From positions 657,563 to 721,562 of the forward strand of contig OY969717.1 of the NCBI GenBank assembly GCA_963702155.1: a stretch of DNA of 64,000 nucleotides, given 5' to 3'. Position numbers and translations under genes: made by a program. The notes beneath the pieces are model-generated. The model did not search any database and was not told the origin of the DNA. It saw only the letters and a list, made by a program, of their open reading frames with translations. This document shows, in pieces, positions 4,747 through 63,971 of this stretch. This DNA comes from an uncultured Alphaproteobacteria bacterium. GTDB lineage: Bacteria; Pseudomonadota; Alphaproteobacteria; Micavibrionales; Micavibrionaceae. The number at the start of each line of letters is the position of its first letter. The stretch's first letter is position 1.

Positions 4747-4998
4747 TTGAAAATATACACCATCGAAAATTTATGCAAGATGGATTATGATCTTGTCATG
4801 AGGCAAAGAATACACGGCGTTCAAGATCACCCAGAATATGAAACACTAAAGACCTATGACGGCGATGTTGCCGAAGGGCTTTACCGTGTCCGGCTGGACT
4901 ATCATGCTTGGGGCAAATCCACCAACCTGTTTTGTTATTTTACTGATCTCACAACTGATAGCCGCTTTCGTTTAAGTGTTTTTCATCGCGGAGGTTAG
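4747..4998 (+). CDS. Hypothetical protein, possibly a truncated relic
   Basis: 83-aa ORF with a non-ATG track start (first ATG is at MDYDL). It ends exactly where the duplicated MauE segment begins. Confidence 0.3.
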   Translation: MKIYTIENLCKMDYDLVMRQRIHGVQDHPEYETLKTYDGDVAEGLYRVRLDYHAWGKSTNLFCYFTDLTTDSRFRLSVFHRGG

Positions 4999-5303
4999 TG
5001 ATCGGCATGACGATAAAGATGTTTATTGCTATCAGCATGTGCGCTCTGGCTATTCAAAAGCTTCGCGATCTTTATGCGTTCTCAAACCAGTTTATCACTT
5101 ATGATCTGCTGGCCATGCGGTGGGTGCGCTATGCCTATATCTATCCATTTGTGGAAATGCTGGCCGGTGTTTGCATGATCGCAGGTGTATTCATTCCGAT
5201 AGCGGCTCCGGCGGCTTTGTTCATAGGAACCATTGGTGCAGTATCCGTGTTTAAAGCTGTGTATGTAGAGAAACGCGACATCAAATGCGCTTGTGTCGGA
5301 GGA
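4998..5303 (+). pseudogene. 5' fragment of a MauE/DoxX-family membrane protein gene (duplicate of 21922..22227)
   Basis: Collinear with 21922..22227: 6 mismatches in the first ~115 nt, then identical. Homology stops after CGGAGGA at 5303, and the ORF runs into unrelated sequence. Confidence 0.75.
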
Positions 5304-5870
5304 AATTATAAATCTCATCTTCACGAACAATAGTATCGTTACGTTCGCTGTTGATCTCATAATTAGCCATAAGGAAGTAACGCAAGAAACGTAAGGGCTT
5401 TTCTTTGTTTTTTTCAAGCGGACTGGTGATCTTTTTCCATTCATCTTTTAACTGGAAAAATTGCTTGGGTGAGACCTGTGTAAATAATAGATTTTTCAAA
5501 AGATCCATAGGGTTTAGGCCAACGCCGCGCTCGTTAATCGTTTCAAAGATTTTTAGTGCGCTACTTACATCCGTAGAGATTTGAATGAAAACTACATTAT
5601 TGGCTAGATGCCCCCAATACTTTTTCAGTATGGCTTCATCATCATAGTTATTGATCAGGAAGCGATAAATAACGTCATAGGCGTTCAATATATTCTCAAC
5701 AGACCCATAAACCTCAATACCAGAACTTTGAATGTTGGCGCGAACAACTTGCGGATCACCATTCGCTTGAACAATCTTTTCAATAACCTCGCCAGCATTT
5801 TCGTATCTTGGCTCCAGTTTAAGATTAGTTTTAATGTCGCCTTGTGCATCAGTATATACAGACGGTAAAT
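5304..5870 (-). pseudogene. DUF262 (GmrSD-type N-terminal domain) gene fragment
   Basis: The minus-strand frame contains ...FETINERGVGLNPMDLLKNLLF, a DUF262-type motif. The 3' end is cut at the 5303 junction. There is no start codon or DGQQR box upstream, and a further frame break lies near 5870. Confidence 0.55.
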
Positions 5871-6071
5871 CAGGATAGATACTTTTCCATTGCCATAAAG
5901 TCGCTTAGATGCTTCCTAAAAACTTCATTTTTTCCGTAATGAGGATTGTAAGATTTCGGCTGATAAATATTGAAGATGATTTTGGATTTTATGACAGAAA
6001 CACTTTCACGCTTGACATAAATTTCTTATTCATTAATTTGAGAGTATTAAATAAATAGTATAGGATTTTTC

Positions 6072-6809
6072 ATGACTAAGCTCGCAAAAAGCTTGATCAG
6101 GATTGTTGTAGTATCTTCATTAAGTATTATTCTTCTTTATATTCTAGGGGGCTATTTCAGCCATTTAAGGAAAAAGGATCAGGAGATAAATACAAAAGCT
6201 TCAGAGGTTGATGAATATAACTTAGGTGATGAAACAATATTTATTCCTTCTATATATTTCCACAAAATAACAGACATTATGAGTAGACCTAGTGGAAATA
6301 TTGCTGCCTATTCTCCAGGAAACATTCCAGTTTTGCTAAGCGAAAAACAAATAAAGAAATTCAATGTAAATGATAAAGTAATAAAAATTGAATTTTTCGA
6401 CGTCAGCACATCTGAGGAAGTCAACCTTTCTAAAGGCTTGGAAGCAACAAAAAAAGTTTTTGCCTTAAACAAAGCTGCTGGTTTTCAATACGACCTGGAA
6501 TACTTTGTTCATTCTGATGGGAGAGATGTTTACAAAGGTTTATGGGTTGATAATGAAGATCAAGTCGACGCCTCTTATATATTATGCCAGCAAGATAAAA
6601 AGACCGTAACAACATGTGATCACGTGTTTAGAAATAATCAATTTAGCTTTGTTCTAAGATATGACAAGAAACTGCTTAGCGATTGGAAAAATATCAAAAC
6701 CAATATTTCGAATTTATTTGAGTCCTTTAACAATCGTAATGTTGCTAAAAATCATATTATTGAGAGTTTAGAAAAAGAAAAAGAAATACAATTTGGAGTA
6801 ATAGAATGA
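6072..6809 (+). CDS. Hypothetical N-terminally membrane-anchored protein
   Basis: 245-aa ORF in an AT-rich segment with one N-terminal hydrophobic helix. No recognisable motif. Confidence 0.5.
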   Translation: MTKLAKSLIRIVVVSSLSIILLYILGGYFSHLRKKDQEINTKASEVDEYNLGDETIFIPSIYFHKITDIMSRPSGNIAAYSPGNIPVLLSEKQIKKFNVNDKVIKIEFFDVSTSEEVNLSKGLEATKKVFALNKAAGFQYDLEYFVHSDGRDVYKGLWVDNEDQVDASYILCQQDKKTVTTCDHVFRNNQFSFVLRYDKKLLSDWKNIKTNISNLFESFNNRNVAKNHIIESLEKEKEIQFGVIE

Positions 6810-7107
6810 GGATTATCAGATTTTGAATTCCTCGATCATCAGATGTTTACAAACAAATTTTCTCTGCTATGTTAACTGCATGCGAAAAGATCATGTATGA
6901 AGTAAAGTATGATAATAAATAAAAAACCTGCTTTTATAGTTTTGACGTTGACTGTTTTAGTTTACCTCACTTCTATTGATAAAGCTTATGCTTGCCTTAC
7001 AGTCAATGACCCTGTGGAAGTTGCATTTAAAGAAAGCGATGTTGTTTTTTCTGGTAAGCTCGTAGGGTGCGAGTCTAAAAGAAAATAAAAATTTTCTTAA
7101 GTATGAA

Positions 7108-7428
7108 GTGCATCAAATTTGGAAAGGAAATATACAACGAGAGTATCTAAAACCTATTAAAGCATCATGTAATAGTCGGATAGTAAATTATAATTTAGTG
7201 GAAAGCCGAAACCAAAAAATAATTACATATGCTGATCATACCAACGAAAATTTTTATCTAAAAAAATACCACAAAGGAAACTGTGGCGGAAGAACGACTT
7301 TAATTCCTTCGTTTTGGCAAAAAGTATATTATAAGGCCTATTATTTCATAAAAGGGCAACACCATATACCATTCGCTTTTGAGGAAGATTACGAATTATT
7401 AGGCGAACCTAAGCATACCTTTAAGTAG
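7108..7428 (+). CDS. Hypothetical protein, possibly the 3' part of a broken gene that starts at 6908
   Basis: 106-aa ORF. A 59-codon signal-peptide-like ORF (6908..7087) lies just upstream in another frame. Confidence 0.3.
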   Translation: MHQIWKGNIQREYLKPIKASCNSRIVNYNLVESRNQKIITYADHTNENFYLKKYHKGNCGGRTTLIPSFWQKVYYKAYYFIKGQHHIPFAFEEDYELLGEPKHTFK

Positions 7429-7752
7429 AAAGTAAAATACAGATGAGTAATTTAAATTATACAGATGTAATAAATACATCTTCAGTATCTAATTCTGAAA
7501 CAAAAACAAAAATTGAATCCGTGCTAGATCAAATTGATGATACGAATGAGGGGCAGGTTTTACTCCAAAATATACTGCAAGGTGAGATGTATGATATTTT
7601 TGATTTGTAGCTATGTTCTAAATTTATTATTTTTTCGTTTTTGGTCATAATTGATCTCTTTCTCTAATATTTAGAGTAAAACTCAATTTATAGAAATTTT
7701 CTAGAAAAGGTTGTTGTTATAGCCCCCTAGGTCAATTAAGAATTGTTATATA

Positions 7753-8580
7753 TCAAGACGTTGAGCGTTCCTTAAATTCAGGAATCCAACTAGTTTCAAT
7801 TGTTGAGATGGAAATGTTTACTTTCTCTTTTTTCAAAAAATCATGGATTTCAGAAGCCGCAGAGGTATTTTTATATTTATACAGCTTTCGAAGACTATAA
7901 ATTTCCTCAGCACGAGTTTTATGAGCATTCGTCTTCTCAGCATTTTTATTGCCGCCTTTTGAGCCATGTACGGCACTGTAAGATGGCCCTTTAATATATT
8001 GGTACATGCTACTATGTATTTTTGAGAGTGAATCTATCTCGCATTGCTCGTAAGAGTAGAGTGCAAGTTCAACCGCATAAAAAGTAGCAATTGCATACAG
8101 CTCTTTTTCGGATCTTGTTTTCCCTGCTAATTTTAGTGAAAATGGATTTCTTTCTAATTCTTCATTATTTATATACGTATCATCGACAAGGGTTCCTATA
8201 TATTTATTTGAGTCTTGAGGTCTCTCGTCAATGATCTTCTTAAATCGTGAAATCATAATAATTTTATGCGCGTTCATCATAAATTGACCTCTCAACTCTA
8301 AATTAGTTTTGTAAAAATTATCCACCTCATCAATCTCATTGAGCTGATGCACTTCACACATTAAGGCCAAGAAAGCACGCACAGATGCATGCATCATTTC
8401 AGTGCGTTTAATTTTTAAATTTTTAGGTAACTCAACGTGTTTTGAGATGTCGTCTTTCCAAAAATACTTATAAGCATCGCTTAAATATATGGATAAACCT
8501 GTTTTTTCTAAAATTTGTGGGCTTACGAACAAATATTTTAATGTTGACGTATTTGTATATTTTTCATTTTCAAGAGACAT
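7753..8580 (-). CDS. Hypothetical protein, divergent from the DUF2924/recombinase pair
   Basis: 275-aa ORF, AT-rich. The C-terminal segment (SEIHDFLKKEKVNISISTIETSW) looks HTH-like. Confidence 0.5.
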   Translation of the reverse strand: MSLENEKYTNTSTLKYLFVSPQILEKTGLSIYLSDAYKYFWKDDISKHVELPKNLKIKRTEMMHASVRAFLALMCEVHQLNEIDEVDNFYKTNLELRGQFMMNAHKIIMISRFKKIIDERPQDSNKYIGTLVDDTYINNEELERNPFSLKLAGKTRSEKELYAIATFYAVELALYSYEQCEIDSLSKIHSSMYQYIKGPSYSAVHGSKGGNKNAEKTNAHKTRAEEIYSLRKLYKYKNTSAASEIHDFLKKEKVNISISTIETSWIPEFKERSTS

Positions 8581-8673
8581 AATTTTTTAAATAACCTTCT
8601 TCAGATGTTACTCGACTTCTTATGCTTTGTACGCATGTATGGACACTACCATGTAAGAAATAAGGAGTTGAAA

Positions 8674-9084
8674 ATGAAACATAAGAAAGAAATTAATCTG
8701 GCTGATTTGCGTGCACAATGGCAGCAAGCTTGGCAGATGAAGCCTCATAACCGTATCGGACGTAAAATGTTAGAGCGCAGCCTATATTTCAAACGGCACG
8801 AAAAACCATTGCCGCTGCAATCGCAAAAACGTCTTAGTAAGCTTATTCAAAATTATAAACGTAACCCACAATACTTTTCGCAAGGGCATTTGGTTTTAAA
8901 GCCAGGAATGAAAATCCTACGAGATTGGAAAGGCAAAACGCATACCGTAACGGTAACATCAAATGGGTTTAGATATGATGCCAAAAACTATACGAGCCTA
9001 TCTAAGATTGCATCGGAGGTAACCGGATCAAAATGGAATGGCTGGGTGTTCTTCGATCTTAAAGACAAGAAGGGAGCATCATGA
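8674..9084 (+). CDS. DUF2924-family protein (serine-recombinase accessory)
   Basis: ATG at 8674 follows AAGGAG. The motifs LKPGMKILRDWKGKTHTVTV..GFRYDAKNYTSLSKIASEVTGSKWNGWVFF match the DUF2924 pattern. There is a 4-nt overlap with the recombinase gene. Confidence 0.75.
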   Translation: MKHKKEINLADLRAQWQQAWQMKPHNRIGRKMLERSLYFKRHEKPLPLQSQKRLSKLIQNYKRNPQYFSQGHLVLKPGMKILRDWKGKTHTVTVTSNGFRYDAKNYTSLSKIASEVTGSKWNGWVFFDLKDKKGAS

Positions 9085-10622
9085 AACCAGACATAAAAAA
9101 CTGCGCTATTTATACGCGCAAATCTACAGAAGAGGGACTGGACCAGGATTTTAATACGCTCGATGCGCAACGTGAAGCTTGTGAGGCTTATATCTTAAGC
9201 CAGAAGGCCGATGGTTGGAAAGCGATTCAAGCCCATTATGATGACGGGGGCTATTCTGGTGGTAATATTGAGCGCCCTGGACTGCAGAAACTGATGCAGG
9301 ATATTAAAGCTAGTAAAGTCCAAACGGTCGTCGTTTATAAAATTGACCGATTGACGCGCTCGCTGACAGACTTTTCAAAGTTAGTTGAGGTTTTTGATGA
9401 ATACGGAGTAACCTTCGTATCGATCACACAAAGTTTTAACACCACAACAAGTATGGGGCGCTTAACCCTGAACGTACTGTTATCTTTTGCGCAATTTGAA
9501 CGTGAAGTCACGGGGGAGCGTATCCGTGATAAAATAGCCGCCAGCAAGCAAAAGGGTATGTGGATGGGAGGATTCCCACCGCTTGGATATCAGCGTGTAG
9601 AACGAAAGTTATTACCAGATCCGATAGAGTGCAAAACTGTAAAGCTTATATTCAACCAGTATCTAAAGCTCAAATCAGTAAGAGCGCTTGCAGATTTTCT
9701 ATCTGCTGAGAATATAAAAACACCAGAACGCGTGTCAAAAAAATGCCGCTTATATGGTAATAAAGAATATAGTAGAGGGCATCTTTATAAAATCCTCAAT
9801 AATCCTGTTTATATCGGCATGGTACGCCATAAAGACAAAGTTTACGAAGGTCAGCATGAAGGCATTATAGACAAGGCTGTTTTTGAAAGCGCACAAGAAC
9901 TGCTCAACAGGCAAGCCGTTGTAAGAGCAGGCAAGACGATTGATAGCGGACAATTGTTAAAAGGACTGCTCTATGATGTTGATGGCACGATTTATAGCCC
10001 AACATATACTTCAAAAGGTAAAAAGCGTTACAGCTATTATATCAGTCAGAATTTACTCCAATATCGTGACCACCCAAAAGGCGTTTTAGCGCGCATCCCA
10101 GCCCATGAAATTGAAAAGGCAGTCACTTGTGGTTTGAAGTCATGGCTATCCGATGACGCCAATCTTGTGGAATTATTTCCCTCCGTAGCTCGGCAGACTC
10201 TAAAATGGATTTCAAATCAGCATTTAGATATTTTGCACGATGATGTGCGCGCCATTTTAAGTATGGTTGTCTTGGCGCAAGATGAAACGACACTCAAAAT
10301 TAACACAGCCAAACTGCAACAATATTTAGAAGATACATTAAAGGTTACGCTTGAAACACCATCTTTAAAAGAGATCTTAGTATTTGTTCTGTATAAAACA
10401 AAGCGCGTAAATAATGGCGCGGTCATTGTTGAAACCAATAGTAGCAATAAAAACATGCTTGATATACCTAATGATCAGCTCGCGCGTATTGTAAAAGGCA
10501 TAGTTTGGCGAGACGAGCACTTTGCCGGTAGCACCCTCAAATCAATCTCAAAAAAGTATCAGCATGGCGAATATTATGTTCATCGATGTATTCATGAGAG
10601 TTTTGACTTTTTGAGCCGTTAA
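9081..10622 (+). CDS. Large serine recombinase
   Basis: 513 aa. N-terminal resolvase domain (AIYTRKSTEEG...DAQREAC, VVVYKIDRLTRS), followed by recombinase and zinc-ribbon-like regions. Confidence 0.92.
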   Translation: MKPDIKNCAIYTRKSTEEGLDQDFNTLDAQREACEAYILSQKADGWKAIQAHYDDGGYSGGNIERPGLQKLMQDIKASKVQTVVVYKIDRLTRSLTDFSKLVEVFDEYGVTFVSITQSFNTTTSMGRLTLNVLLSFAQFEREVTGERIRDKIAASKQKGMWMGGFPPLGYQRVERKLLPDPIECKTVKLIFNQYLKLKSVRALADFLSAENIKTPERVSKKCRLYGNKEYSRGHLYKILNNPVYIGMVRHKDKVYEGQHEGIIDKAVFESAQELLNRQAVVRAGKTIDSGQLLKGLLYDVDGTIYSPTYTSKGKKRYSYYISQNLLQYRDHPKGVLARIPAHEIEKAVTCGLKSWLSDDANLVELFPSVARQTLKWISNQHLDILHDDVRAILSMVVLAQDETTLKINTAKLQQYLEDTLKVTLETPSLKEILVFVLYKTKRVNNGAVIVETNSSNKNMLDIPNDQLARIVKGIVWRDEHFAGSTLKSISKKYQHGEYYVHRCIHESFDFLSR

Positions 10623-48726: not shown

Positions 48727-48936
48727 TTAAATCGGTATTCCGCCGCGGGCGCGGATGCCTTTGCCGCCACGCTTCACTTTTGCTTCATAACGGGCTTCCA
48801 GCTTTTGGAGGCTTTCGATATCGGCATGAGTGACCTCGCGGCCTTCATAGGCAACTTTTTGACCGCCCAGCAAAATATTATCGATAGCCTTGCGGATATT
48901 GGTCAATTTGCTCTGTGCGTCTTCAAGATCACTCAT
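48727..48936 (-). CDS. Head-tail joining protein gpW-like
   Basis: 69 aa between the TerL and portal genes, with a gpW-like sequence. Confidence 0.7.
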   Translation of the reverse strand: MSDLEDAQSKLTNIRKAIDNILLGGQKVAYEGREVTHADIESLQKLEARYEAKVKRGGKGIRARGGIPI

Positions 48937-50840
48937 GATCGAACTCCTTTACTGCGGACGCGCCGTCCGGATTTAGGTTTTGGCTTCGGTTCGCCTTCTT
49001 TTTCCTGATTGGCCACATGGGTTAAATGCGCCTCAAGATCACGCCAGTGGCGTTCGCTGAAACGATCCAATCCCTCCATAGCGGCGGCGGCTCTGGCATA
49101 GACGTAACAGTCCAATGCTTCGTTGCGCTCACGCAGTTTCTGCCATTCACGGATGGCATATCCCGCGCGGTTGCGCTTTGTAATGAGCTGCTCCGAACAC
49201 ACTTGCCTCATAAACTCTTCATCCATTTTGGGGAAATGGACGAAGCCAGGGGGATACGGATCACCGCTTTCATCGGTGGGCGGTAATTTTCTCAAATTCC
49301 CGAACAGCTCCAGCTTGGCGATATGACCGGATACAGGCCGGATACGAATACCGCGCCGAAGCTTTTTACCGTCGTGGCCGGTTTCAACAGCCGTGGCGGT
49401 ACCGACAAGCGCAGAACCACGCGCAACACCTTTGACGGCCACCACCAAAGAGGAGGATTGTTTACGAACCCAATCGTAGACCTCCTGCGTGGCGTAACCG
49501 CTATCAATGGCGATGCGTTTTAATGAAAGCTGGCATCCCAGCTCATGCGGCCACGTATCGTTGGTTAATTTTGTCAGACGATTCCAAACATCTTGTCGGC
49601 TGGTATCGCCGTCCAAAACGCGGTGTTCAATAAGCCAGCATTCTTTTTCGCGTCCCCATGCCCAGATCGAGGCTTCAATCCGGTCTTTTTGAACGTCAAT
49701 GCCAGCGGTAAGGAAAAAGCCGCCCTTGGGAACCGCACCAACTTTATAATCCTCGCGGCGTTCATATAAACGCTGCCAGTCTGGGGCTTCGCCGGATTCC
49801 ACGAATGTTTCTCCAAGCTCGGTATTTTTGAAGGCTTTGATCGCCGCATCCGAGCCTTGGGCATCCTTCCATGATTTGGCAATATCAACCCATGACCGCC
49901 AACCAACTGGCGAGTACAGCGATGAGAGGTGAAACCCCGCAACTTTGGAGTTGACTTTTTTGTCTTCTGGGGCTGTGGCTTCCCAATAGCCGTTTTCCAG
50001 CATCCATGTTTTGTGATGCTCATCGATAAAGTCATCACAATGTTCACATTGATATCTGGCCAGCTCCGGTTGGTCTTTTGGCCATTTGAGTTGTTCAAAT
50101 TTGAGCCATTGGGACGATCCACAATGCGGACACGGCACCATATAACGGCGTTGGTCGCTTAATTCATATTCGCGTTCAATCCGCGATATGCCCTTAATCG
50201 TGGGCGTAGAGACCAGAAAAATCTTCCGGCGTGAGAATGTCCGCGTCCGTGCTTCAGCCAAAGCAATCGGATCACCTTCATCGTCGATGTCGCCAGGATA
50301 AGCGTCAATCTCATCCAAAAACAAAAACCGGACAGGCATGGAGCGCAGTCCGGTTGCGCTGTTTGCGCCCGTTAAAATCAAAACGCCGCCCTGAAATTCT
50401 TTAGACAAGATCGTGTTGCCGCTATCACGGCTGCGGGCAGGTTTGATCTTCTCGCTTAAGATCGGGCTTTCAGCAATCAACGGATCCAAGCGTTGTTTGG
50501 ATGTCCGTTTGGCCATTTCCACCGTGGGCAGAACCGATAACATCGGCCCTGGCGTGTGGTGAATAACAAATCCAATCCAGTTATTACCAGCCTCGGTCGC
50601 GCCGAGCTGGGAGCCTTTCATGAAAACAACGCGCTCCATATTGGAGTGCGGTGATAGCGCATCCATAATCTCTTTGAGATATGGTGTTCTGCTTGTGCGC
50701 CATGGGCCAGGCTCGGCAGATGACTTACTGGATAAGCGGCGATATTCGTCCGCCCATTCGGATACGGTAAGTATCGGATCGGGTGTAAGGCCGTGCCGAA
50801 ACGCCGTTCCATAGACGGTGTCTGCGTTCGGCATGGTCAT
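48933..50840 (-). CDS. Terminase large subunit (GpA-like)
   Basis: 635 aa. Walker-like KGSQLGATE, an FLDEID acidic motif and a CPHCG...CEHC zinc element, as in GpA terminases. Confidence 0.9.
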   Translation of the reverse strand: MTMPNADTVYGTAFRHGLTPDPILTVSEWADEYRRLSSKSSAEPGPWRTSRTPYLKEIMDALSPHSNMERVVFMKGSQLGATEAGNNWIGFVIHHTPGPMLSVLPTVEMAKRTSKQRLDPLIAESPILSEKIKPARSRDSGNTILSKEFQGGVLILTGANSATGLRSMPVRFLFLDEIDAYPGDIDDEGDPIALAEARTRTFSRRKIFLVSTPTIKGISRIEREYELSDQRRYMVPCPHCGSSQWLKFEQLKWPKDQPELARYQCEHCDDFIDEHHKTWMLENGYWEATAPEDKKVNSKVAGFHLSSLYSPVGWRSWVDIAKSWKDAQGSDAAIKAFKNTELGETFVESGEAPDWQRLYERREDYKVGAVPKGGFFLTAGIDVQKDRIEASIWAWGREKECWLIEHRVLDGDTSRQDVWNRLTKLTNDTWPHELGCQLSLKRIAIDSGYATQEVYDWVRKQSSSLVVAVKGVARGSALVGTATAVETGHDGKKLRRGIRIRPVSGHIAKLELFGNLRKLPPTDESGDPYPPGFVHFPKMDEEFMRQVCSEQLITKRNRAGYAIREWQKLRERNEALDCYVYARAAAAMEGLDRFSERHWRDLEAHLTHVANQEKEGEPKPKPKSGRRVRSKGVRS

Positions 50841-50882
50841 TCATCATGTTTCAATTTTTTAAAAATTTTGTTGTGGATTTGA

Positions 50883-50914
50883 CTGGACTTCCGTTTTTTC
50901 CCAAGCGTTCATGG
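50883..50914 (+). promoter_or_regulatory. Promoter cassette copy 1: CTGGACTT-N10-CCAAGCGTTCATGG
   Basis: One of three copies with identical spacing. GGAC-N17-CGTT resembles ECF-type promoters. Followed by an A(A/C)CGAAAGG leader and an ATG. Confidence 0.55.
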
Positions 50915-50959
50915 CATCACACGATGAGCGTGTAACCCATTCAACCGAAAGGAAAAACA

Positions 50960-51352
50960 ATGTCTAAAACTCAAACAAAGCCCAAAGTGGCACCTAAACA
51001 GCCGGATCTTAAAAAAGATGAGGCGGTAAAACCAAAAACCGCACCCCCAACCACAGTAGAGGCCAAAAAACCGGAAGCGGACAAACCCAAGGCAGAGCCA
51101 GCCAAAAAGGTCACCAACAAACAGCGAATGATCGATATGCTCAATCGCCCCGATGGTGCGACCGATGCCGAGCTGGTCAAAGCCTTTAGCTGGAAAGGCA
51201 ATCATGTCGCCCGAGGCCAACGATCCACACTCGCCAAAGAATACCGCGAAAAGAAAACGGGCTTGATGCTGTGTAAATTTACGCGGACACCCAGCGGTGA
51301 CACCGCATATAAGATTGAGCCAATCGAAGAAGAAAAGCCCCAAGCGGCGTAA
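50960..51352 (+). CDS. DUF3489-family protein with a Lys/Pro-rich N-terminus
   Basis: MLNRPDGATDAELVKAFSWKGNHVARG fits the DUF3489 pattern (GAT..EL....W..HS.RG). Confidence 0.65.
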   Translation: MSKTQTKPKVAPKQPDLKKDEAVKPKTAPPTTVEAKKPEADKPKAEPAKKVTNKQRMIDMLNRPDGATDAELVKAFSWKGNHVARGQRSTLAKEYREKKTGLMLCKFTRTPSGDTAYKIEPIEEEKPQAA

Positions 51353-51461
51353 ATATGGGCGAGTGTCGGGCAATGAAGCCCGACACTCTATTCATTGAAT
51401 ACTAGGAAAGGAGCATTGCAATGAAATCTCTAAAAATACGATCATATGATGGTGTTTTTTG

Positions 51462-51493
51462 CTGGACTTACAGGTGTTTCCAAGCGTTCATGG
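51462..51493 (+). promoter_or_regulatory. Promoter cassette copy 2
   Basis: CTGGACTT at 51462 and CCAAGCGTTCATGG at 51480. Confidence 0.55.
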
Positions 51494-51525
51494 ATGTATA
51501 AAAACAAACAACGAAAGGCAATATA

Positions 51526-51747
51526 ATGAACACACAAACCAAACAAACAGCCGCTGAAAGCGTTGAGATGAGGTTATTTAGAATTAACGTCCAACTTGAC
51601 CGCCTTATGCGTCATAACAAAAAACAAGAACAAAATTTTGACCCAGATAAGGTTACATGGGCAGATGATGGCACACTCGGTCACATCGAAGCCAAGCTTC
51701 AAGAATTAAGCGACTTTGTTTTTCAAGAAGGCGAACACACAACATAG
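51526..51747 (+). CDS. Hypothetical small protein
   Basis: 73-aa ORF preceded by promoter cassette 2 and the AACGAAAGG leader. Confidence 0.5.
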   Translation: MNTQTKQTAAESVEMRLFRINVQLDRLMRHNKKQEQNFDPDKVTWADDGTLGHIEAKLQELSDFVFQEGEHTT

Positions 51748-51760
51748 AAAGGGACACCCC

Positions 51761-52057
51761 ATGACTGACGAAAAAATAATCCGTAAAGAAATGAAACAAT
51801 TACTGGCACATTTCGATGATAAAAAACTCGATAATATCTATTATCTGAAATTCAGATGGGCAGATGAAAGCGAATATGAAGACTTTGAAGAGTACAAAGA
51901 CGTTGTTAAAAAGCACCTTTCAAATTCAGTCTATAAATTCATCTCGCTCGATAAGCGATTTAAATTAACGGTCGAAAACACGGAAACAAATAACATATTC
52001 GCGGTATCATTTAAAAATGATGGCGTGTCCGTCAATTACAAACAAAAAGCCGCATAA
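51761..52057 (+). CDS. Hypothetical small acidic protein
   Basis: Start MTDEKIIRK at 51761. More AT-rich than its neighbours. Confidence 0.5.
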   Translation: MTDEKIIRKEMKQLLAHFDDKKLDNIYYLKFRWADESEYEDFEEYKDVVKKHLSNSVYKFISLDKRFKLTVENTETNNIFAVSFKNDGVSVNYKQKAA

Positions 52058-52060
52058 GGA

Positions 52061-52092
52061 CTGGACTTGCTCCGCGACCCAAGCGTTCATGG
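52061..52092 (+). promoter_or_regulatory. Promoter cassette copy 3
   Basis: CTGGACTT at 52061 and CCAAGCGTTCATGG at 52079. Confidence 0.55.
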
Positions 52093-52113
52093 GTCTAACG
52101 AAAGGAGCAAAAT

Positions 52114-52362
52114 ATGACCGATAATCAAGAGCCGTCATTACAACATACAGTCCGGTGCAAAGCCATGCATGCCAATATTGAGGCCATGGAATACATCGTT
52201 AATAATCTACTCATCCAAATCAAGGCCGCACACGAGAAAGCCCTCTATAACAACAGTGAGGAAGCCATGACCGAATTGGCAAAAACAAAACCAACACTTG
52301 AAGCCATAGCCGCATTATACGAGGCCACAGATAAGCTGAATACAAACGTATTACAGTTTTAA
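52114..52362 (+). CDS. Hypothetical small helical protein
   Basis: 82-aa ORF after cassette 3, with RBS AAAGGAG. Confidence 0.5.
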   Translation: MTDNQEPSLQHTVRCKAMHANIEAMEYIVNNLLIQIKAAHEKALYNNSEEAMTELAKTKPTLEAIAALYEATDKLNTNVLQF

Positions 52363-53606
52363 TCCTCGCCGAATTCTTTTCCGGTCTCGGCATGCGTGGC
52401 CGTCTTGCCTGTGTGATCCTGCCAACGCTGCACAATCACATCCACATACTTCGGATCTAGCTCTATAAGCCGTGCGGAACGCCCTAGATTTTCAGCCGCA
52501 ATCATTGTGGTACCCGAGCCACCGAACGGATCCAGCACGATATCCTGTGTCTTTGATGAATTTTTTATAGCACGTTCCACCAACTCCACTGGCTTCATAG
52601 TGGGGTGAAGCGTCTGCAGATGCGGACGGTTGATATGCCAGATATCACTCTGGTCACGCGCACCGCACCAATAATGATCGTTGCCCTTACGCCAGCCATA
52701 TAAGATCGGCTCATATTGTTTGTGGTAATCAGACCAGCCAAGCGTGTAATGGTTCTTAGCCCAGACAATATGCGTGGAGACATAGCCGCCAGCCTCTTCA
52801 AATGAACGGTGGAGGTTATGCATCTCACTGCCAGCCATACAGATATACAGCGCACCCTTGGTGTATTCGATGGCCACGGCACATAGGTCGGATAAGAATT
52901 TACCAAACTCCGCACCGAGATTATCGTTCATAAGGTCACGGCCTTTGACCTTCTTACCCTTGGCACGGGCGCGAACCTCTTCGGTCTTACCGTAATCAAC
53001 ATTATATGGTGGGTCGGTAAAGCACATATCGGCCAGCTCTTCCGCACCGAACAACCGTTCGTAATCAGATTTCTTTGTGGAGTCACCGCATAATACTTTG
53101 TGCTTACCGCATATCCATATATCACCCAGACGAGAGACGGGGTTATCCGGTGGCTCTGGCGCGGTATCTTCTTCCTCGCGTGCCTGGTCGTCATCCTCTT
53201 CAGGATTGAGTAAGCCATCTATGAACGCTGCTTCCAACGCAGTGATGTCTATATCGAAGCCTTCCTCATCCAGATAGCCCAGCTCCTCTGCCAGTTTTTC
53301 TTCATCCCAGCCGGAGTTGAGTGCGATACTGTTGTCAGCAATAGTCAGAGCGCGCCGCTGGGCTTCGGTCAATCCTTTTAGGATGATCACAGGAAGCTCT
53401 TTATAGCCTATGTTTTGTGCCGCTTCTAAGCGACCGTGGCCAGCAATTATAATATTGTTCTCATCGATAAGGATCGGGTTATAGAAATCAAACTCAAGCA
53501 TCGACCGTTCAATCTGTTTGATTTGATCGGTGGGATGCGTCCGTGCGTTGTTATCGTAGGGGACGATCTCTTCAATGGGTCGGTACTCGACCTTCAATTT
53601 GTTCAT
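52359..53606 (-). CDS. ParB-like nuclease domain fused to an N6/N4 DNA methyltransferase
   Basis: N-terminal ParB/Srx box (ILIDENNIIIAGHGRLEAA). The MTase core has DPPYN and a C-terminal DPFGGSGTT. Confidence 0.88.
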   Translation of the reverse strand: MNKLKVEYRPIEEIVPYDNNARTHPTDQIKQIERSMLEFDFYNPILIDENNIIIAGHGRLEAAQNIGYKELPVIILKGLTEAQRRALTIADNSIALNSGWDEEKLAEELGYLDEEGFDIDITALEAAFIDGLLNPEEDDDQAREEEDTAPEPPDNPVSRLGDIWICGKHKVLCGDSTKKSDYERLFGAEELADMCFTDPPYNVDYGKTEEVRARAKGKKVKGRDLMNDNLGAEFGKFLSDLCAVAIEYTKGALYICMAGSEMHNLHRSFEEAGGYVSTHIVWAKNHYTLGWSDYHKQYEPILYGWRKGNDHYWCGARDQSDIWHINRPHLQTLHPTMKPVELVERAIKNSSKTQDIVLDPFGGSGTTMIAAENLGRSARLIELDPKYVDVIVQRWQDHTGKTATHAETGKEFGED

Positions 53607-53832
53607 ACTGGCCTCTATTACGTGAAGTGTGTGCGAATTATTTTTCGTAACGAAATAAAAAAGGTACTGTGACGCGCCGACGTAAAGGGGCGGCGAACGC
53701 GCGATATTTATTTAGCGACAGGGTTGCCAACTTGGTTGCGGTAACATGGTTTCGGTGGTCGCAAGCATTTGATTTATTTACACAATCACCGAAACGAAAC
53801 CGCCGCTTGGTTTCGGTGCTTATGATCCGGCT

Positions 53833-55122
53833 TCATCGGCAATGCAGAGAAGCGTATAAAGTTCGAAACGCATACGCTGCCACCAGTGGCACCACGCCAT
53901 TTCCACAGAGCCGAAGTCTGTCCACCCGAAAGGCCATCCCATCAGCCATTCGGTGAACAGCGGGTTTAAGCGCATATCCGATATCTTCCCATCTTTCATG
54001 GTTGCTGGGAGATGGTGGCCAGACTGGAATGCCAAGGTCGGAAGCGATATCTGCTGTGTTTTCCGTGGCTTCATCCCGGGGCTGTCTTTCCAATCCCGAG
54101 CGCACGGTGTCGGCCATGCCTTGGCTTGCGCCGTCAATGAGCTGTGAGCCTGATTTGTCCGGTCGTCCATCCGTTTCAGAAATGTTTCCTGTTTCTCGCC
54201 GCTTTCTTGCGCCCGCGGGGTCAGCCATTGTTTCGCTGTTTCCGCAAGGCCGTTGCTGAAATTCGCGCTGGTCGATCCTGGTTCCTGCGCTCTGGGTGTT
54301 GGCCAGTTGATTTTCGCCGTCTTGTATTTCTGGCCGGTTTGTTTCTTCTGCAGATCCTGTTTCGTATAAGGAAAATCCTTCGGTTGCATAACAGTCTCTG
54401 CCAGCGATGGTGTCCGCAGTACGTTGCGCCCATCTTTCCGGATCATCTTTTCCGGTGGTCTGGCTTTGTTGGTATTCGCATCGGTCGCCGTCACCGTCGG
54501 CCACATATGCCGGACTTGATCTCGAAGCATCAGCGGCATGTTCGCTTCCATCTTTTCCTTGAATTTTTGAGGACTTAGACATCCGCCCGTTGCCTCGGTC
54601 GCTTTCACGGTGCGCCATAATGAAGAGCCGTTCACGTTTATGCGTTGCACCGACTTCTTCCGCTGTAAACAAGCCCGCCGCAACGCTGTAACCCATTGAT
54701 CGTAAGTCGTCGTGGACTTGCTGAAAGCCCAAACGTAAATGGTGAGAGACGTTTTCAAAGAAACAGAGTTCCGGCTGGATTGCGGCGACAATGTCTTTGA
54801 TATAAGGCCAGAGATGCCGTGGGTCTTTTTCCCCGCGCTTGACTCCGGCGATTGAGAACGGCTGGCACGGATATCCTGCAGTGAGGATATCCACGCATCC
54901 GCGCCACGGTTTTGGATCGAAGGTCTTAACGTCAGACCAGATAGGTGCGGCATCCATGGTTTCATCTTCCATGCGCGCTGCAAGCTGCGCGGCAGCATAG
55001 GCTTCCCCCTCGACATAACAAACGGTTCTTGCTTCAGGCACTCCGAGCTTAACGCCGAGTTCGAGTCCGCCCGCACCGGAACAGAGGGACAGCACTGTTG
55101 GGGTATATGGATCCACATTCAA
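53833..55122 (-). CDS. DNA (cytosine-5) methyltransferase
   Basis: Motifs LCSGAGG (I), GYPCQPFS (IV), ENV (VI), RERLFI (VIII) and GNGVVP (X) all lie in this frame. A second, fully overlapping 432-codon ORF exists (see findings). Confidence 0.8.
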   Translation of the reverse strand: MNVDPYTPTVLSLCSGAGGLELGVKLGVPEARTVCYVEGEAYAAAQLAARMEDETMDAAPIWSDVKTFDPKPWRGCVDILTAGYPCQPFSIAGVKRGEKDPRHLWPYIKDIVAAIQPELCFFENVSHHLRLGFQQVHDDLRSMGYSVAAGLFTAEEVGATHKRERLFIMAHRESDRGNGRMSKSSKIQGKDGSEHAADASRSSPAYVADGDGDRCEYQQSQTTGKDDPERWAQRTADTIAGRDCYATEGFSLYETGSAEETNRPEIQDGENQLANTQSAGTRIDQREFQQRPCGNSETMADPAGARKRRETGNISETDGRPDKSGSQLIDGASQGMADTVRSGLERQPRDEATENTADIASDLGIPVWPPSPSNHERWEDIGYALKPAVHRMADGMAFRVDRLRLCGNGVVPLVAAYAFRTLYASLHCR

Positions 55123-55150
55123 AATGATTTTTAAGTTTTAGAAAAATCGG

Positions 55151-55648
55151 TTAAACGACCGCAGGTTTTTTCCATTGAAGAGAATCTTCATCGAACCTGT
55201 ATGCAAAACCAAAGTGTCGCTTACAGCATTGCCGTATTTCAGTTACAGTAGCTTTGCCCCAATTTGGCAGAAGTAATAAGTCTGCATCGTTCAAATCCAA
55301 AACTTCATTCAAATTTTTGACACCAATGGATAAAAAGGAATTTACAGTTCTAGTTGAGAGATCAAGGTAGCGGATAGACAAATCAGGAATTCCCTGACTA
55401 TCTATCGTTTCACCGTCGTGAGCTTCAATATGAGCTTCAACATGTGCCGTCATATCTTTTTGATGTTGAACGAGCTTTTTGAGTTGTTTGTTTTCAAAAC
55501 GTAATTTCCAACTATGCTTCACGATGATTGTTTTTATTCTACCCGGGGATAGGTCAAAGCGTTTGGCAAGATCACTAAAACCCACACGCTCGTTAAGCCA
55601 GATATCGAATATTTTCTCGTTTCTTTCTTCTTTTTCAGGATCACGCAT
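55151..55648 (-). CDS. Mor/C-like HTH activator fused to an RNA polymerase alpha-CTD-like domain
   Basis: The N-terminus ERNEKIFDIW..GFSDLAKRFDLSPGRIKTII is Mor-like. The C-terminus LDLSTRTVNSFLSIGVKNLNEVLDLNDADLLLLPNWGKATVTEI parallels E. coli RpoA CTD [44 protein letters not shown]. Confidence 0.65.
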   Translation of the reverse strand: MRDPEKEERNEKIFDIWLNERVGFSDLAKRFDLSPGRIKTIIVKHSWKLRFENKQLKKLVQHQKDMTAHVEAHIEAHDGETIDSQGIPDLSIRYLDLSTRTVNSFLSIGVKNLNEVLDLNDADLLLLPNWGKATVTEIRQCCKRHFGFAYRFDEDSLQWKKPAVV

Positions 55649-55662
55649 CTTTCCTACCTGCG

Positions 55663-56208
55663 TTAAATTGGTTTTTTCGTGAGTTCGGCCAGAGCTTTGT
55701 TAAGTTCTTCCTGCAATTTTTTATGAATCTCCGCAGCATCGTTAAGGCTTGCCAATACAGGAGCCAAACGGTCAGGGATATTGAGAATATTGTCGCGTAC
55801 AGTGCGTGCCTGCTTAAACGCTGCGGCACGGACTTCATCCACATCCACGTATTTGCCGCCTTCAACTTTAGCTTTGATTTCCAGTAATTTTGCTTTTTCA
55901 CTTTCACTTTTGATCCGTGTTTTGAGAAGCAGTGTTGGCAGTTGTGAATCTGATAGTGGGCGTGGCGCGGACACATTGACCGCCGCGCTCTCAATCGCAT
56001 TTTCTGCTTTTCGGTCTTGATGTGTTTGTCTTGCGGGTTCGCGCCGCGCTTCCAATATGGCATCGGCCTGTACTGGATCGATCTTGTCATTAATCGTAGG
56101 AATAACACCTTCTCTGATAAGCCGACCGATATACTGGCGAGAAACGCCGCGTTGCTCTCCGTAATCGGTGCGCGTCAGGAGCTGTTTTTTCTTTGATTTT
56201 TTGGCCAT
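55663..56208 (-). CDS. Putative terminase small subunit (Nu1-like HTH protein)
   Basis: N-terminal HTH (LTRTDYGEQRGVSRQYIGRLIREGVIP) and a coiled-coil C-terminal region resembling small terminases. Confidence 0.5.
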   Translation of the reverse strand: MAKKSKKKQLLTRTDYGEQRGVSRQYIGRLIREGVIPTINDKIDPVQADAILEARREPARQTHQDRKAENAIESAAVNVSAPRPLSDSQLPTLLLKTRIKSESEKAKLLEIKAKVEGGKYVDVDEVRAAAFKQARTVRDNILNIPDRLAPVLASLNDAAEIHKKLQEELNKALAELTKKPI

Positions 56209-56323: not shown

Positions 56324-56797
56324 TCACGTTTTTTTGTTATTTAAATCAACGTCTTGATATGTGGGATAGGATTTTATGATAACGCCTTCGGGGTCATGTG
56401 CGTTCAATTTTGCAACAATCTTCATAATGCCGTAATTCAAACGGCGCCGACCTGTGGTCTCTGATATTTTCAATTCATACTCAATGACCTTCCACGGCTT
56501 ACCCATAGCACGCCGCCATATAACTCTGGCTTCCTCTGCATTTGCCCACCGTAACCAGCAGGCCACATGATCATGAAAATCAACTTCGCGGGAGAGAGCG
56601 TATCCACGACTTTTATCGCCTGGGTCGCCTTGAATAATCTCCATTAAGTCACGCAGAACGGGAGGCCAGACAGAGAAATAGCCTTTTGGTTTTACGCTAG
56701 GAAATTTCTTTTCGATATCGGCAGCTTTTCGGATGTAAGAAAACACCATTTCATCCGTCCAATATGGCTCTGGTGGTGGCCCGTAATGGTATGTCAT
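56324..56797 (-). CDS. Hypothetical protein with a sigma-region-4-like HTH
   Basis: WKVIEYELKISETTGRRRLNYGIMKIV resembles a region-4/LuxR-type HTH. Confidence 0.45.
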   Translation of the reverse strand: MTYHYGPPPEPYWTDEMVFSYIRKAADIEKKFPSVKPKGYFSVWPPVLRDLMEIIQGDPGDKSRGYALSREVDFHDHVACWLRWANAEEARVIWRRAMGKPWKVIEYELKISETTGRRRLNYGIMKIVAKLNAHDPEGVIIKSYPTYQDVDLNNKKT

Positions 56798-63470: not shown

Positions 63471-63971
63471 TTACTGCGCCCAGGATGGTTTGCTGGGGTT
63501 GTCTGGTTGCTGTGGCGATGCTGGTTGTTGTCCGGCATTTTGCTGTGGCGGCGGTGACTGATTATTTTGCGGCATCGCATAGCCATTGGCGGCAACAAAG
63601 CCCTGATAATCTTTATTATCCGGTGTGATCGCCGTGCGGATTTCGTTTTTATCGTCATCACGCGTGTCTTTGCCGACATCAATCAAGGCCAAAAACTCAA
63701 TGCCATCGAGGTCGGCAAAGCCAGATATGCGGCGTTTGTTTTGTGCTTCAGGCGAGTTGTCCTTCGGATTAACGCCTCTGGATGAATTCAATATGGCTTT
63801 CACGAAAGATCGGCCCATATCTGCCCACTTAGGCCCGTTGGGAGAATGCAGTCCGATATTGCTCCAAACCTTACGCTTCGCAAATTTTCCTTCTGTGATT
63901 ACAAATTCACAATCAAGATAAATCGCGCCCGTTGTGTCGTTGCGCTTGGCATAGCCGCCAGTCCAACCCAT
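63471..63971 (-). CDS. Hypothetical replication-module protein with a Q/P-rich tail, possibly ssDNA-binding
   Basis: 166-aa ORF. The frame stays open upstream to the window edge, so the true start may lie beyond 64000. Confidence 0.4.
   Translation of the reverse strand: MGWTGGYAKRNDTTGAIYLDCEFVITEGKFAKRKVWSNIGLHSPNGPKWADMGRSFVKAILNSSRGVNPKDNSPEAQNKRRISGFADLDGIEFLALIDVGKDTRDDDKNEIRTAITPDNKDYQGFVAANGYAMPQNNQSPPPQQNAGQQPASPQQPDNPSKPSWAQ

Follow-up and report, generated by a model that had tools for sequence, protein, structure and literature searches.

The 64-kb window analysed here (the whole stretch of contig OY969717.1, from an uncultured member of the Micavibrionaceae, to which all coordinates refer unless another sequence is named) carries a prophage in which the bipartite sequence CTGGACTT-N10-CCAAGCGTTCATGG is repeated ahead of small genes. 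Exact copies lie on the plus strand at 50883-50914, 51462-51493 and 52061-52092; against these three, the chance expectation in 100 shuffles is 0.00. No fourth match was found in the 64 kb with up to three mismatches allowed, and the 14-mer CCAAGCGTTCATGG alone, with up to two mismatches, retrieves only the same three window sites. The pattern scan and the shuffles agree with an earlier note on this DNA, which had reported the three exact copies and had also placed the start codons at 50960, 51526 and 52114 correctly. Since the 10-nt spacers and the flanks are dissimilar among the copies, the repeats are not a recent block duplication. Downstream of each copy there is an A(A/C)CGAAAGG element (at 50944, 51510 and 52097), which begins 30, 17 and 5 nt past the last motif base, so that the presence of this element, as previously described, stands, and its distance of 'about 30-45 nt' was loosely given. 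Such elements number five in the window versus 1.0 expected, and are Shine-Dalgarno regions, that of the first gene being ACCGAAAGG (50944-50952, plus strand). We propose, with a probability of about 0.65, that the repeats are promoters of one conserved class belonging to a large lineage of temperate phages related to the Acidithiobacillus phage AcaML1.

Each copy precedes a small plus-strand gene, as had been noted, but the genes concerned number four and not three. Gene A (50960-51352, 130 aa) encodes a DUF3489 protein (Pfam PF11994, E=2.9e-08) in which a Lys/Pro/Ala-rich disordered N-terminus is followed by the DUF3489 winged-helix domain; in its AlphaFold model, residues 50-125 have pLDDT >90 and are arranged as H-H-H-strand-strand, with generic winged-helix matches. 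An intrinsic-terminator-like hairpin with an 11-bp stem (51361-51388, plus strand) follows gene A and closes the first cassette, and the same hairpin is present in L001, a closely related prophage in a Micavibrio metagenome-assembled genome (MAG). Gene B (51526-51747, plus strand, 73 aa) matches phrog_14596 of PHROG, a family of unknown function, and is weakly related to proteins of Roseobacter phages RDJL Phi 1 and Phi 2. Gene C (51761-52057, plus strand, 98 aa, no family) follows gene B without a motif copy of its own, for which reason the two are presumed to be co-transcribed. Copy 3 begins 4 nt past the stop codon of gene C and precedes gene D (52114-52362, plus strand, 82 aa, no family), whose homologue in L001 has no copy of its own. 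The signal would thereby define three transcription units in the window, namely A, B-C and D.

Genes A-D form an island counter-oriented to the remainder of the prophage. The gene for the terminase large subunit gpA (48933-50840, minus strand) is divergent from gene A and motif copy 1, and a ParB-N/N6-N4 DNA methylase gene (52359-53606, minus strand) is convergent with gene D. Further minus-strand genes encode a C5 methylase, a protein with the C-terminal domain of the RNA polymerase alpha subunit (alpha-CTD), the small terminase subunit (55663-56208), a DUF6362 protein, RuvC, primase, a Cas4-type exonuclease and a helicase. About 5 kb thus separates the genes of the two terminase subunits, between which the island and the methylases are situated; besides the cassette array, which is counter-oriented, the stretch 50841-56208 encodes the alpha-CTD protein and two DNA methylases. 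As for moron features in the window, promoters are predicted for all three units and a terminator-like hairpin is present only after gene A. Genes B and C are missing from L001 and other cargo occupies the same slot elsewhere, a moron-like patchy presence. Between the hairpin and gene B, an open reading frame of 26 codons begins with an ATG at 51422 behind a strong ribosome-binding site, GGAAAGGAG, and extends through motif copy 2 (51406-51502, plus strand). The ribosome-binding site and start at 51406-51424 match those of the D-like gene in L001 (5570-5600) and are probably a remnant from the insertion of the B-C cassette.

The signal extends well beyond the window. Homologues of copy 1 occupy the same place in the related prophages L001 and L003-L007. 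In five related prophage loci, chosen as contigs encoding close homologues of gene A, the motif was found with 0-2 mismatches before the DUF3489 gene and before the next plus-strand cargo gene. The cargo in this slot differs, with other small genes in L003 and L004, while the DUF3489 gene opens the module in essentially all relatives. In L006, the slot downstream of DUF3489 holds a mercury-resistance operon (4872-7661; merR, merT, a merP/HMA protein and merA). A scan of 185,579 genomes, one genome per species, with 20 fixed bases returned two loci, both with the motif just upstream of a DUF3489 gene. In addition to L001, the motif is present in L002, a MAG of 61% GC, where it is followed by DUF3489-DUF2924-serine recombinase. 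A metagenome scan for the form seen in the window, hereafter M (TGGACTT ... CCAAGCGTTCATG), yielded 22 further loci.

The majority form is a sister variant, R (GCTTGGCTT-N8-AACAGCGCGTTCAT), carried by a Ralstonia megaplasmid prophage and by AcaML1 before DUF3489 and the following small genes. These two elements have the same module as the window, running from primase through methylases and a counter-oriented DUF3489 array to terminase. In R. pseudosolanacearum GMI1000, the region concerned is at 712-717 kb of the megaplasmid. A joint degenerate pattern recovered at least 120 viral contigs, with up to seven same-strand copies per contig; this figure and the counts of instances, loci and downstream families below are those among the matches listed. 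A slightly relaxed local search gave 291 motif instances on about 150 phage or prophage contigs. Variant M is present in 31 loci of 35-66% GC and variant R in 124 loci of 54-70% GC; the two never occur together in one locus (0/155) despite their overlapping GC ranges. The phages with the motif are AcaML1-like temperate phages, with Micavibrio, Ralstonia and Acidithiobacillus as named hosts. The cultured phages found with the module are only AcaML1, two Ralstonia prophage records and distant RDJL and Bordetella matches, and transcript maps were not found for any of them. On plasmid p_IV of Paracoccus aminovorans, a conjugative megaplasmid, homologues of gene B and DUF3489 are adjacent (about 2000-2750), and the motif is absent. 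Hence the pair also occurs outside phages, and DUF3489 genes do not generally carry the motif.

The families most often found first downstream of the signal are DUF3489 (51), a 122-aa family (45), DUF6900 (38), DUF2924 (33) and a 119-aa family (19), and many of the other first genes are singletons without a family. In the complete genome of AcaML1 there are exactly four copies, all on the strand opposite the lytic genes: the gp32-gp27 module has three, and the remaining one precedes gp4 (DUF2924), behind which come serine-recombinase genes. Their positions in JX507079 are 22258, 21126, 20448 and 3029 (minus strand). Variant M also precedes a DUF2924 gene in about eight metagenome loci. A serine recombinase directly downstream was confirmed in L143, L144 and L149, as well as in L141, where the DUF2924 frame is disrupted. 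In L141 and L149, the recombinase operon is located upstream of replication genes on the same strand, so the orientation of the signal relative to the lytic genes is not universal. By analogy with these two loci, a fourth M copy would be expected past the end of the window, on the minus strand, ahead of a DUF2924/serine-recombinase operon situated a few kb upstream of the gene at 63471-63971. These associations suggest that the signal marks a regulon consisting of the integrase, DUF3489 and accessory genes.

A comparable arrangement is known in phage lambda, where the promoters PRE, PI and PaQ depend on a single phage factor, CII, and consist of TTGC-N6-TTGC repeats straddling the -35 region, combined with ordinary weak -10 boxes. 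Both systems comprise a small set of look-alike, non-consensus sites in a temperate phage, directed mostly against the lytic genes and serving the integrase gene, here through the copy which AcaML1, 33 viral loci and about eight metagenome loci have ahead of DUF2924/serine recombinase. In contrast to the CII promoters, the phages studied here have a conserved -35-like block and a 15-nt block spanning -21 to -7, with up to seven copies per phage. The TTGC-N6-TTGC repeat is absent from variants M and R, and no CII homologue was seen.

The anatomy of the signal was derived from 207 unique instances. Conservation covers positions -2 to 7 (GCTTGGCTTC) and 14 to 28 (GAACAGCGCGTTCAT) and is missing from positions 8 to 13. 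A pyrimidine (C or T) invariably occupies position 34, and 81% of the instances have A or G at position 35, which gives a pyrimidine-purine step 7 nt past CAT. With the start placed at position 35, TTGGCT (TGGACT in M, TTGACT in some copies) falls at -35 to -30 and GTTCAT at -12 to -7, with a 17-bp spacer between them, and the conserved -21 to -13 stretch coincides with the zone that sigma factors read as the extended -10. Positions 34-35 of the window copies are C-A, T-A and T-A, and the predicted starts are therefore 50919, 51498 and 52097, all on the plus strand. In copy 1, the -35-like TGGACT would occupy 50884-50889 and the putative -12 to -7 element GTTCAT 50907-50912, the latter within the conserved block CCAAGCGTTCATGG (50901-50914), 7 nt before the predicted start. 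A start codon lies downstream in 284 of the 291 instances, at a median of 35 nt past the motif (5-95%: 18-42 nt). The signal is thus bipartite and always co-oriented with a gene behind it, and its blocks are kept while spacer and flanks vary; its geometry points to a promoter of the sigma-70 family. Position, orientation, geometry and conservation across about 150 contigs support the part of the earlier note that had proposed a dedicated, repeated transcription signal as opposed to a coding or mobile sequence. The same is not true of the links drawn there to EcfG and to the proteins encoded at 55151 and 56324.

The link to EcfG was based on GGAC-N17-CGTT, equivalent to GGACT-N16-CGTT, which is literally there in all three window copies and recalls GGAAC-N16/17-CGTT, the site of alphaproteobacterial sigma factors of the extracytoplasmic function (ECF) group. 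If a host EcfG-type or other ECF sigma factor read the repeats, the genes behind them would be stress-induced. Like EcfG promoters, the motif is bipartite and combines a -35 block containing GGA with a CGTT in the -10 region, at comparable spacing, and GGACT of variant M is nearer to GGAAC than is TGGCT of variant R. However, the AAC core is missing in both variants (TGGACTT in M; TTGGCTT or TTGACTT in R), and the conserved blocks are far longer than an ECF site. Moreover, GCGTTCAT and the sister -35 block are present in Ralstonia and Acidithiobacillus phages, outside Alphaproteobacteria, the group to which the EcfG/NepR/PhyR system belongs, contigs spanning 35-66% GC retain variant M in its exact form, and both exact matches in the 185,579 genomes are prophage-type copies, none of them belonging to host genes. 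We accordingly find the EcfG assignment unsupported and consider reading by any host ECF sigma factor highly improbable.

The main rival assumes an early or constitutive promoter read by host sigma-70 in the ordinary way, without a dedicated sigma factor or activator, on which the operator of a phage repressor is superimposed; the variant bases would then act as immunity determinants. The -35 variants converge on TTGACT (compared with the sigma-70 hexamer TTGACA, TTGGCT and TGGACT have 4/6 and TTGACT 5/6 matching positions) and the spacing is 17 bp if GTTCAT is the -10 hexamer; in addition, the M copy heading the recombinase operon of L141 and L149 could be the leftmost early promoter. The -10 block fits less well. 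GTTCAT, and likewise GTTACT, the version which precedes most genes of the 122-aa family, have T-7 but neither A-11 nor T-12, on which sigma-70 depends most. The copies show no drift toward TATAAT, as would be expected of a sigma-70 site, and a sigma-70 consensus scan did not call the motif sites. Furthermore, AcaML1 has no isolated occurrence of either block outside the four copies, not even in the likely early switch region at 6600-6827. A plain sigma-70 promoter under a repressor therefore seems to us unlikely, although it shares with the preferred reading one further observation, the distribution of variant bases within and between phages.

Copies inside one phage are identical in 0.92-1.00 of comparisons at positions -2, 1, 3, 18, 19 and 20, and in 0.77 at position 16. 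Between phages, the same positions are identical in 0.45-0.89, and the spacer positions in about 0.3 in both comparisons. As the spacers are only about 0.3 identical while the variant bases reach 0.92-1.00, the copies must be old and yet uniform in each phage. Together with the strict M/R split across overlapping GC ranges, this uniformity argues for a co-evolving specificity factor, and judging from these sequence comparisons, a dedicated factor that evolves with the phage (an activator, a sigma-like factor or a repressor) is likely. Positions that are uniform within and variable between phages also resemble immunity operators, as the rival outlined above would have it.

We thus favor a promoter class of the AcaML1-related lineage that would serve the DUF3489 gene, the DUF2924/serine-recombinase (integrase) operon and a changing series of small accessory genes that have a copy each. 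In the window, the cargo slot would be that between the terminase large-subunit gene and the methylase genes. Host RNA polymerase would read block 1 (TTGGCT, TTGACT or TGGACT) as the -35 element through region 4 of a sigma-70-family factor, and block 2 (GCGTTCAT, sometimes GCGTTACT) would be a non-canonical -10 region. Because the latter lacks A-11, a dedicated specificity factor, co-evolving with the bases at about -37, -34, -32 and -19 to -15, would be required for efficient or regulated initiation.

Several observations weigh against this interpretation. The search for a sigma factor or activator shared by every phage with the motif found none, and the early proteins common to the window and AcaML1 are replication and recombination enzymes. 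Within-phage uniformity could reflect the operator of an immunity repressor over an ordinary promoter, or adaptation to host factors. The predicted transcription start and the putative -35/-10 assignment derive from the geometry of the sites. Finally, the conservation of GCGTTCAT is partly built into the search patterns; when the upstream regions of family genes in these loci were inspected instead, a procedure with less bias, GCGTTCAT or GCGTTACT turned up almost every time, in loci that had been picked for having one exact copy. In the candidate considered next, GWQAHTVRG, the recognition helix of DUF3489, hardly varies among R subtypes and recurs in L002, which has variant M, so that it does not follow the variant-specific bases.

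DUF3489 is the leading candidate for the factor, as an autoregulator of the whole set, since no other protein with a DNA-binding fold accompanies the signal in every case. A PDB sequence search with DUF3489 and DUF6362 returned nothing significant. The idea that the recognition helix tracks the motif variant was rejected on the grounds given above. Near-identical promoter-operator cassettes before several operons, with the regulator in the first one, are also a property of the plasmid regulons of KorA/KorB (IncP) and ArdK (IncN/IncW), the operators of which are short palindromes over sigma-70 promoters. Unlike in these regulons, no palindrome is common to the variants described here, and the element is a tailed phage. 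In a more far-reaching version, which we regard as quite unlikely, a phage protein, maybe DUF3489, would redirect host RNA polymerase to GCGTTCAT, in which the normally essential A-11 is missing, by sigma appropriation or as a sigma-like factor, creating a private promoter class across Micavibrio, Ralstonia and Acidithiobacillus phages that controls the integrase and shufflable small genes. A familiar case is that of the T4 middle promoters, read through the MotA box and sigma appropriation by AsiA in a lytic phage, where the -10 is normal and the -35 is replaced. The T4 middle promoters, the densely packed promoter/small-gene arrays of the host-takeover module of SPO1 and the mobile regulatory cassettes of T4-type phages are similar to the present system in that phage-specific promoters precede many small genes of unknown function and that the repeated regulatory cassettes favor gene shuffling. 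They belong to lytic phages and differ from the signal described here, which has a normal-looking -35 and an odd -10 and whose gene set includes the integrase operon of temperate phages.

Two proteins encoded near the island had been put forward in the earlier note as readers of the motif. The first (55151-55648, minus strand, 165 aa) was described as a fusion of Mor and alpha-CTD. An alpha-CTD is indeed recognized by Pfam (E=8e-10) and by matches to alpha subunits in PDB (E about 2e-4), but the 'Mor' label of the N-terminal part was not confirmed by Pfam. No homologue of this protein was detected in the 120 motif-bearing viral loci among the matches listed, and it appears to be confined to Micavibrio-type phages. 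The second, the DUF6362 protein (56324-56797, minus strand), could be a divergent sigma factor of the phage, responsible for reading the motif. In its AlphaFold model, the four helices at the C-terminus superpose on region 4 of ECF sigma factors, with a root mean square deviation of 1.4-2.3 Å over 56-61 residues and 28-30% identity to SigL (3hug), and a TM of 0.79 for SigR (5fgm); besides, the conserved parts of the motif are those parts of promoters that sigma factors contact. Against this, the Foldseek E-values are weak (0.2-3), the N-terminal half of the model has low confidence, and DUF6362 is undetectable in AcaML1, a phage with four motif copies. It was detected in 24 of the loci searched, among them 21 of the 120 viral loci by tblastn, the loci being short. 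The gene is located just upstream of the small terminase gene, a place more typical of a late-gene regulator, and for this reason DUF6362 may be such a regulator. We see hardly any likelihood that it is the sigma factor in question. Given the absence of co-occurrence with the motif, both the alpha-CTD protein and DUF6362 were rejected as the cognate factor.

Differences in cargo raise the alternative that the repeats are recombination sites or cassette boundaries which shuffle genes and carry no transcription signal. The cargo between copies indeed differs among close relatives (genes B and C, the genes of L003 and L004, the mer operon of L006), gene D of L001 lacks one, and what is probably left of a ribosome-binding site and start lies at 51406-51424. 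Yet the distance to the start codon is fixed, the orientation is strict and a conserved dyad of the attC or att type is absent; homologous recombination between promoter copies would give shuffling as a by-product. No tyrosine integron integrase was found in the module. Recombination sites without a promoter function are thus very hard to credit as an explanation. Cargo is probably moved by recombination between copies of the motif, as indicated by gene D without a copy in L001 and by the remnant at 51406-51424. In T4-type phages, recombination between promoter copies has reportedly been proposed for mobile regulatory cassettes.

A number of other candidate functions were considered. The 'imperfect dyad' previously described within CCAAGCGTTCATGG has 4/7 symmetric pairs and is out of register with the R dyad GAAC-N5-GTTC, hence it is probably not the conserved feature. 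Antisense coding (MNAW... or MNALFxxEAK(R), with a hint of 3-nt periodicity) was rejected: of 239 unique copies, 11% run into a stop in the first 10 codons and 33% in the first 20. The antisense reading of window copy 2 is MNAWKHL*, and nothing is conserved past the motif. A search of Rfam gave nothing below E=0.99. Sigma-54 was dismissed by eye, the GG-N10-GC register landing in the variable spacer. Compared with the motif, the consensus sites of sigma-32, RpoE/AlgU and sigma-28 have a partial -35 likeness (CTTG, ACTT), with the spacing off by 2-5 bp and a different -10. The LexA box CTGT-N8-ACAG matches R at 6/8 positions and is absent from M, and the alphaproteobacterial GTTC-N7-GTTC is absent. 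Binding sites of the small terminase or cos were likewise rejected, one AcaML1 copy lying about 17 kb off at the integrase operon and arrays of up to seven copies standing before genes.

In the literature searched, the motif strings were not found as a regulatory element. A paper on a Paraburkholderia phage cites AcaML1, and the motif is absent from its passages on AcaML1, promoters and morons. Essentially, the DUF families associated with the signal are unstudied in the literature. Phage-specific promoter classes with a dedicated factor have precedents, as do small genes that stand behind repeated promoter cassettes; no description seems to exist of the present signal, with its odd -10 region, the genes it serves and its wide distribution. 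The promoter classes of T4 middle and late genes, lambda CII and Mu Mor/C were all entry points to new ways of reprogramming RNA polymerase. The information content of the present signal is very high, with about 25 conserved positions, and it is unchanged across genomes of 35-66% GC. It marks a defined set of genes (integrase, DUF3489, DUF6900 and several unannotated families) in a lineage that is common in metagenomes and has almost no experimental literature. The signal hence provides a sequence handle with which to find the regulon, predict co-expressed accessory genes and fish for the protein that reads it, and the cassettes explain how cargo, including the mercury-resistance operon of one relative, is slotted into these prophages.

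Some further observations concern the neighborhood of the signal. In the window, the DUF3489 leader (50915-50943) contains a short hairpin, ACACG-ATGAG-CGTGT. The corresponding leaders of L001, L002, L003, L004 and L006 have a hairpin each, with unlike sequences, that of L002 being a long GC hairpin; the consensus RNA structure of the DUF3489 leaders is weak (-2.5 kcal/mol, three pairs with compensatory changes). The window has a second pair of genes encoding DUF2924 and a large serine recombinase (8605-10622, plus strand), the recombinase being 47% identical to that of AcaML1. The surroundings of this pair are AT-rich, the structural genes of the prophage are about 15 kb away and no motif copy precedes it; the pair is probably a separate integrative element. 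In L132, the locus of AcaML1 (JX507079), at 8089-9231 of that locus, the first motif copy, a ribosome-binding site and an ATG (about 8365) lie inside gp33, on the opposite strand. This ATG is in frame with gp32 (DUF3489). Gp33 is annotated as 'terminase small subunit gpNu1', and the protein resembling the small terminase of the window is gp23. The annotation of gp32 and gp33 may need revision.

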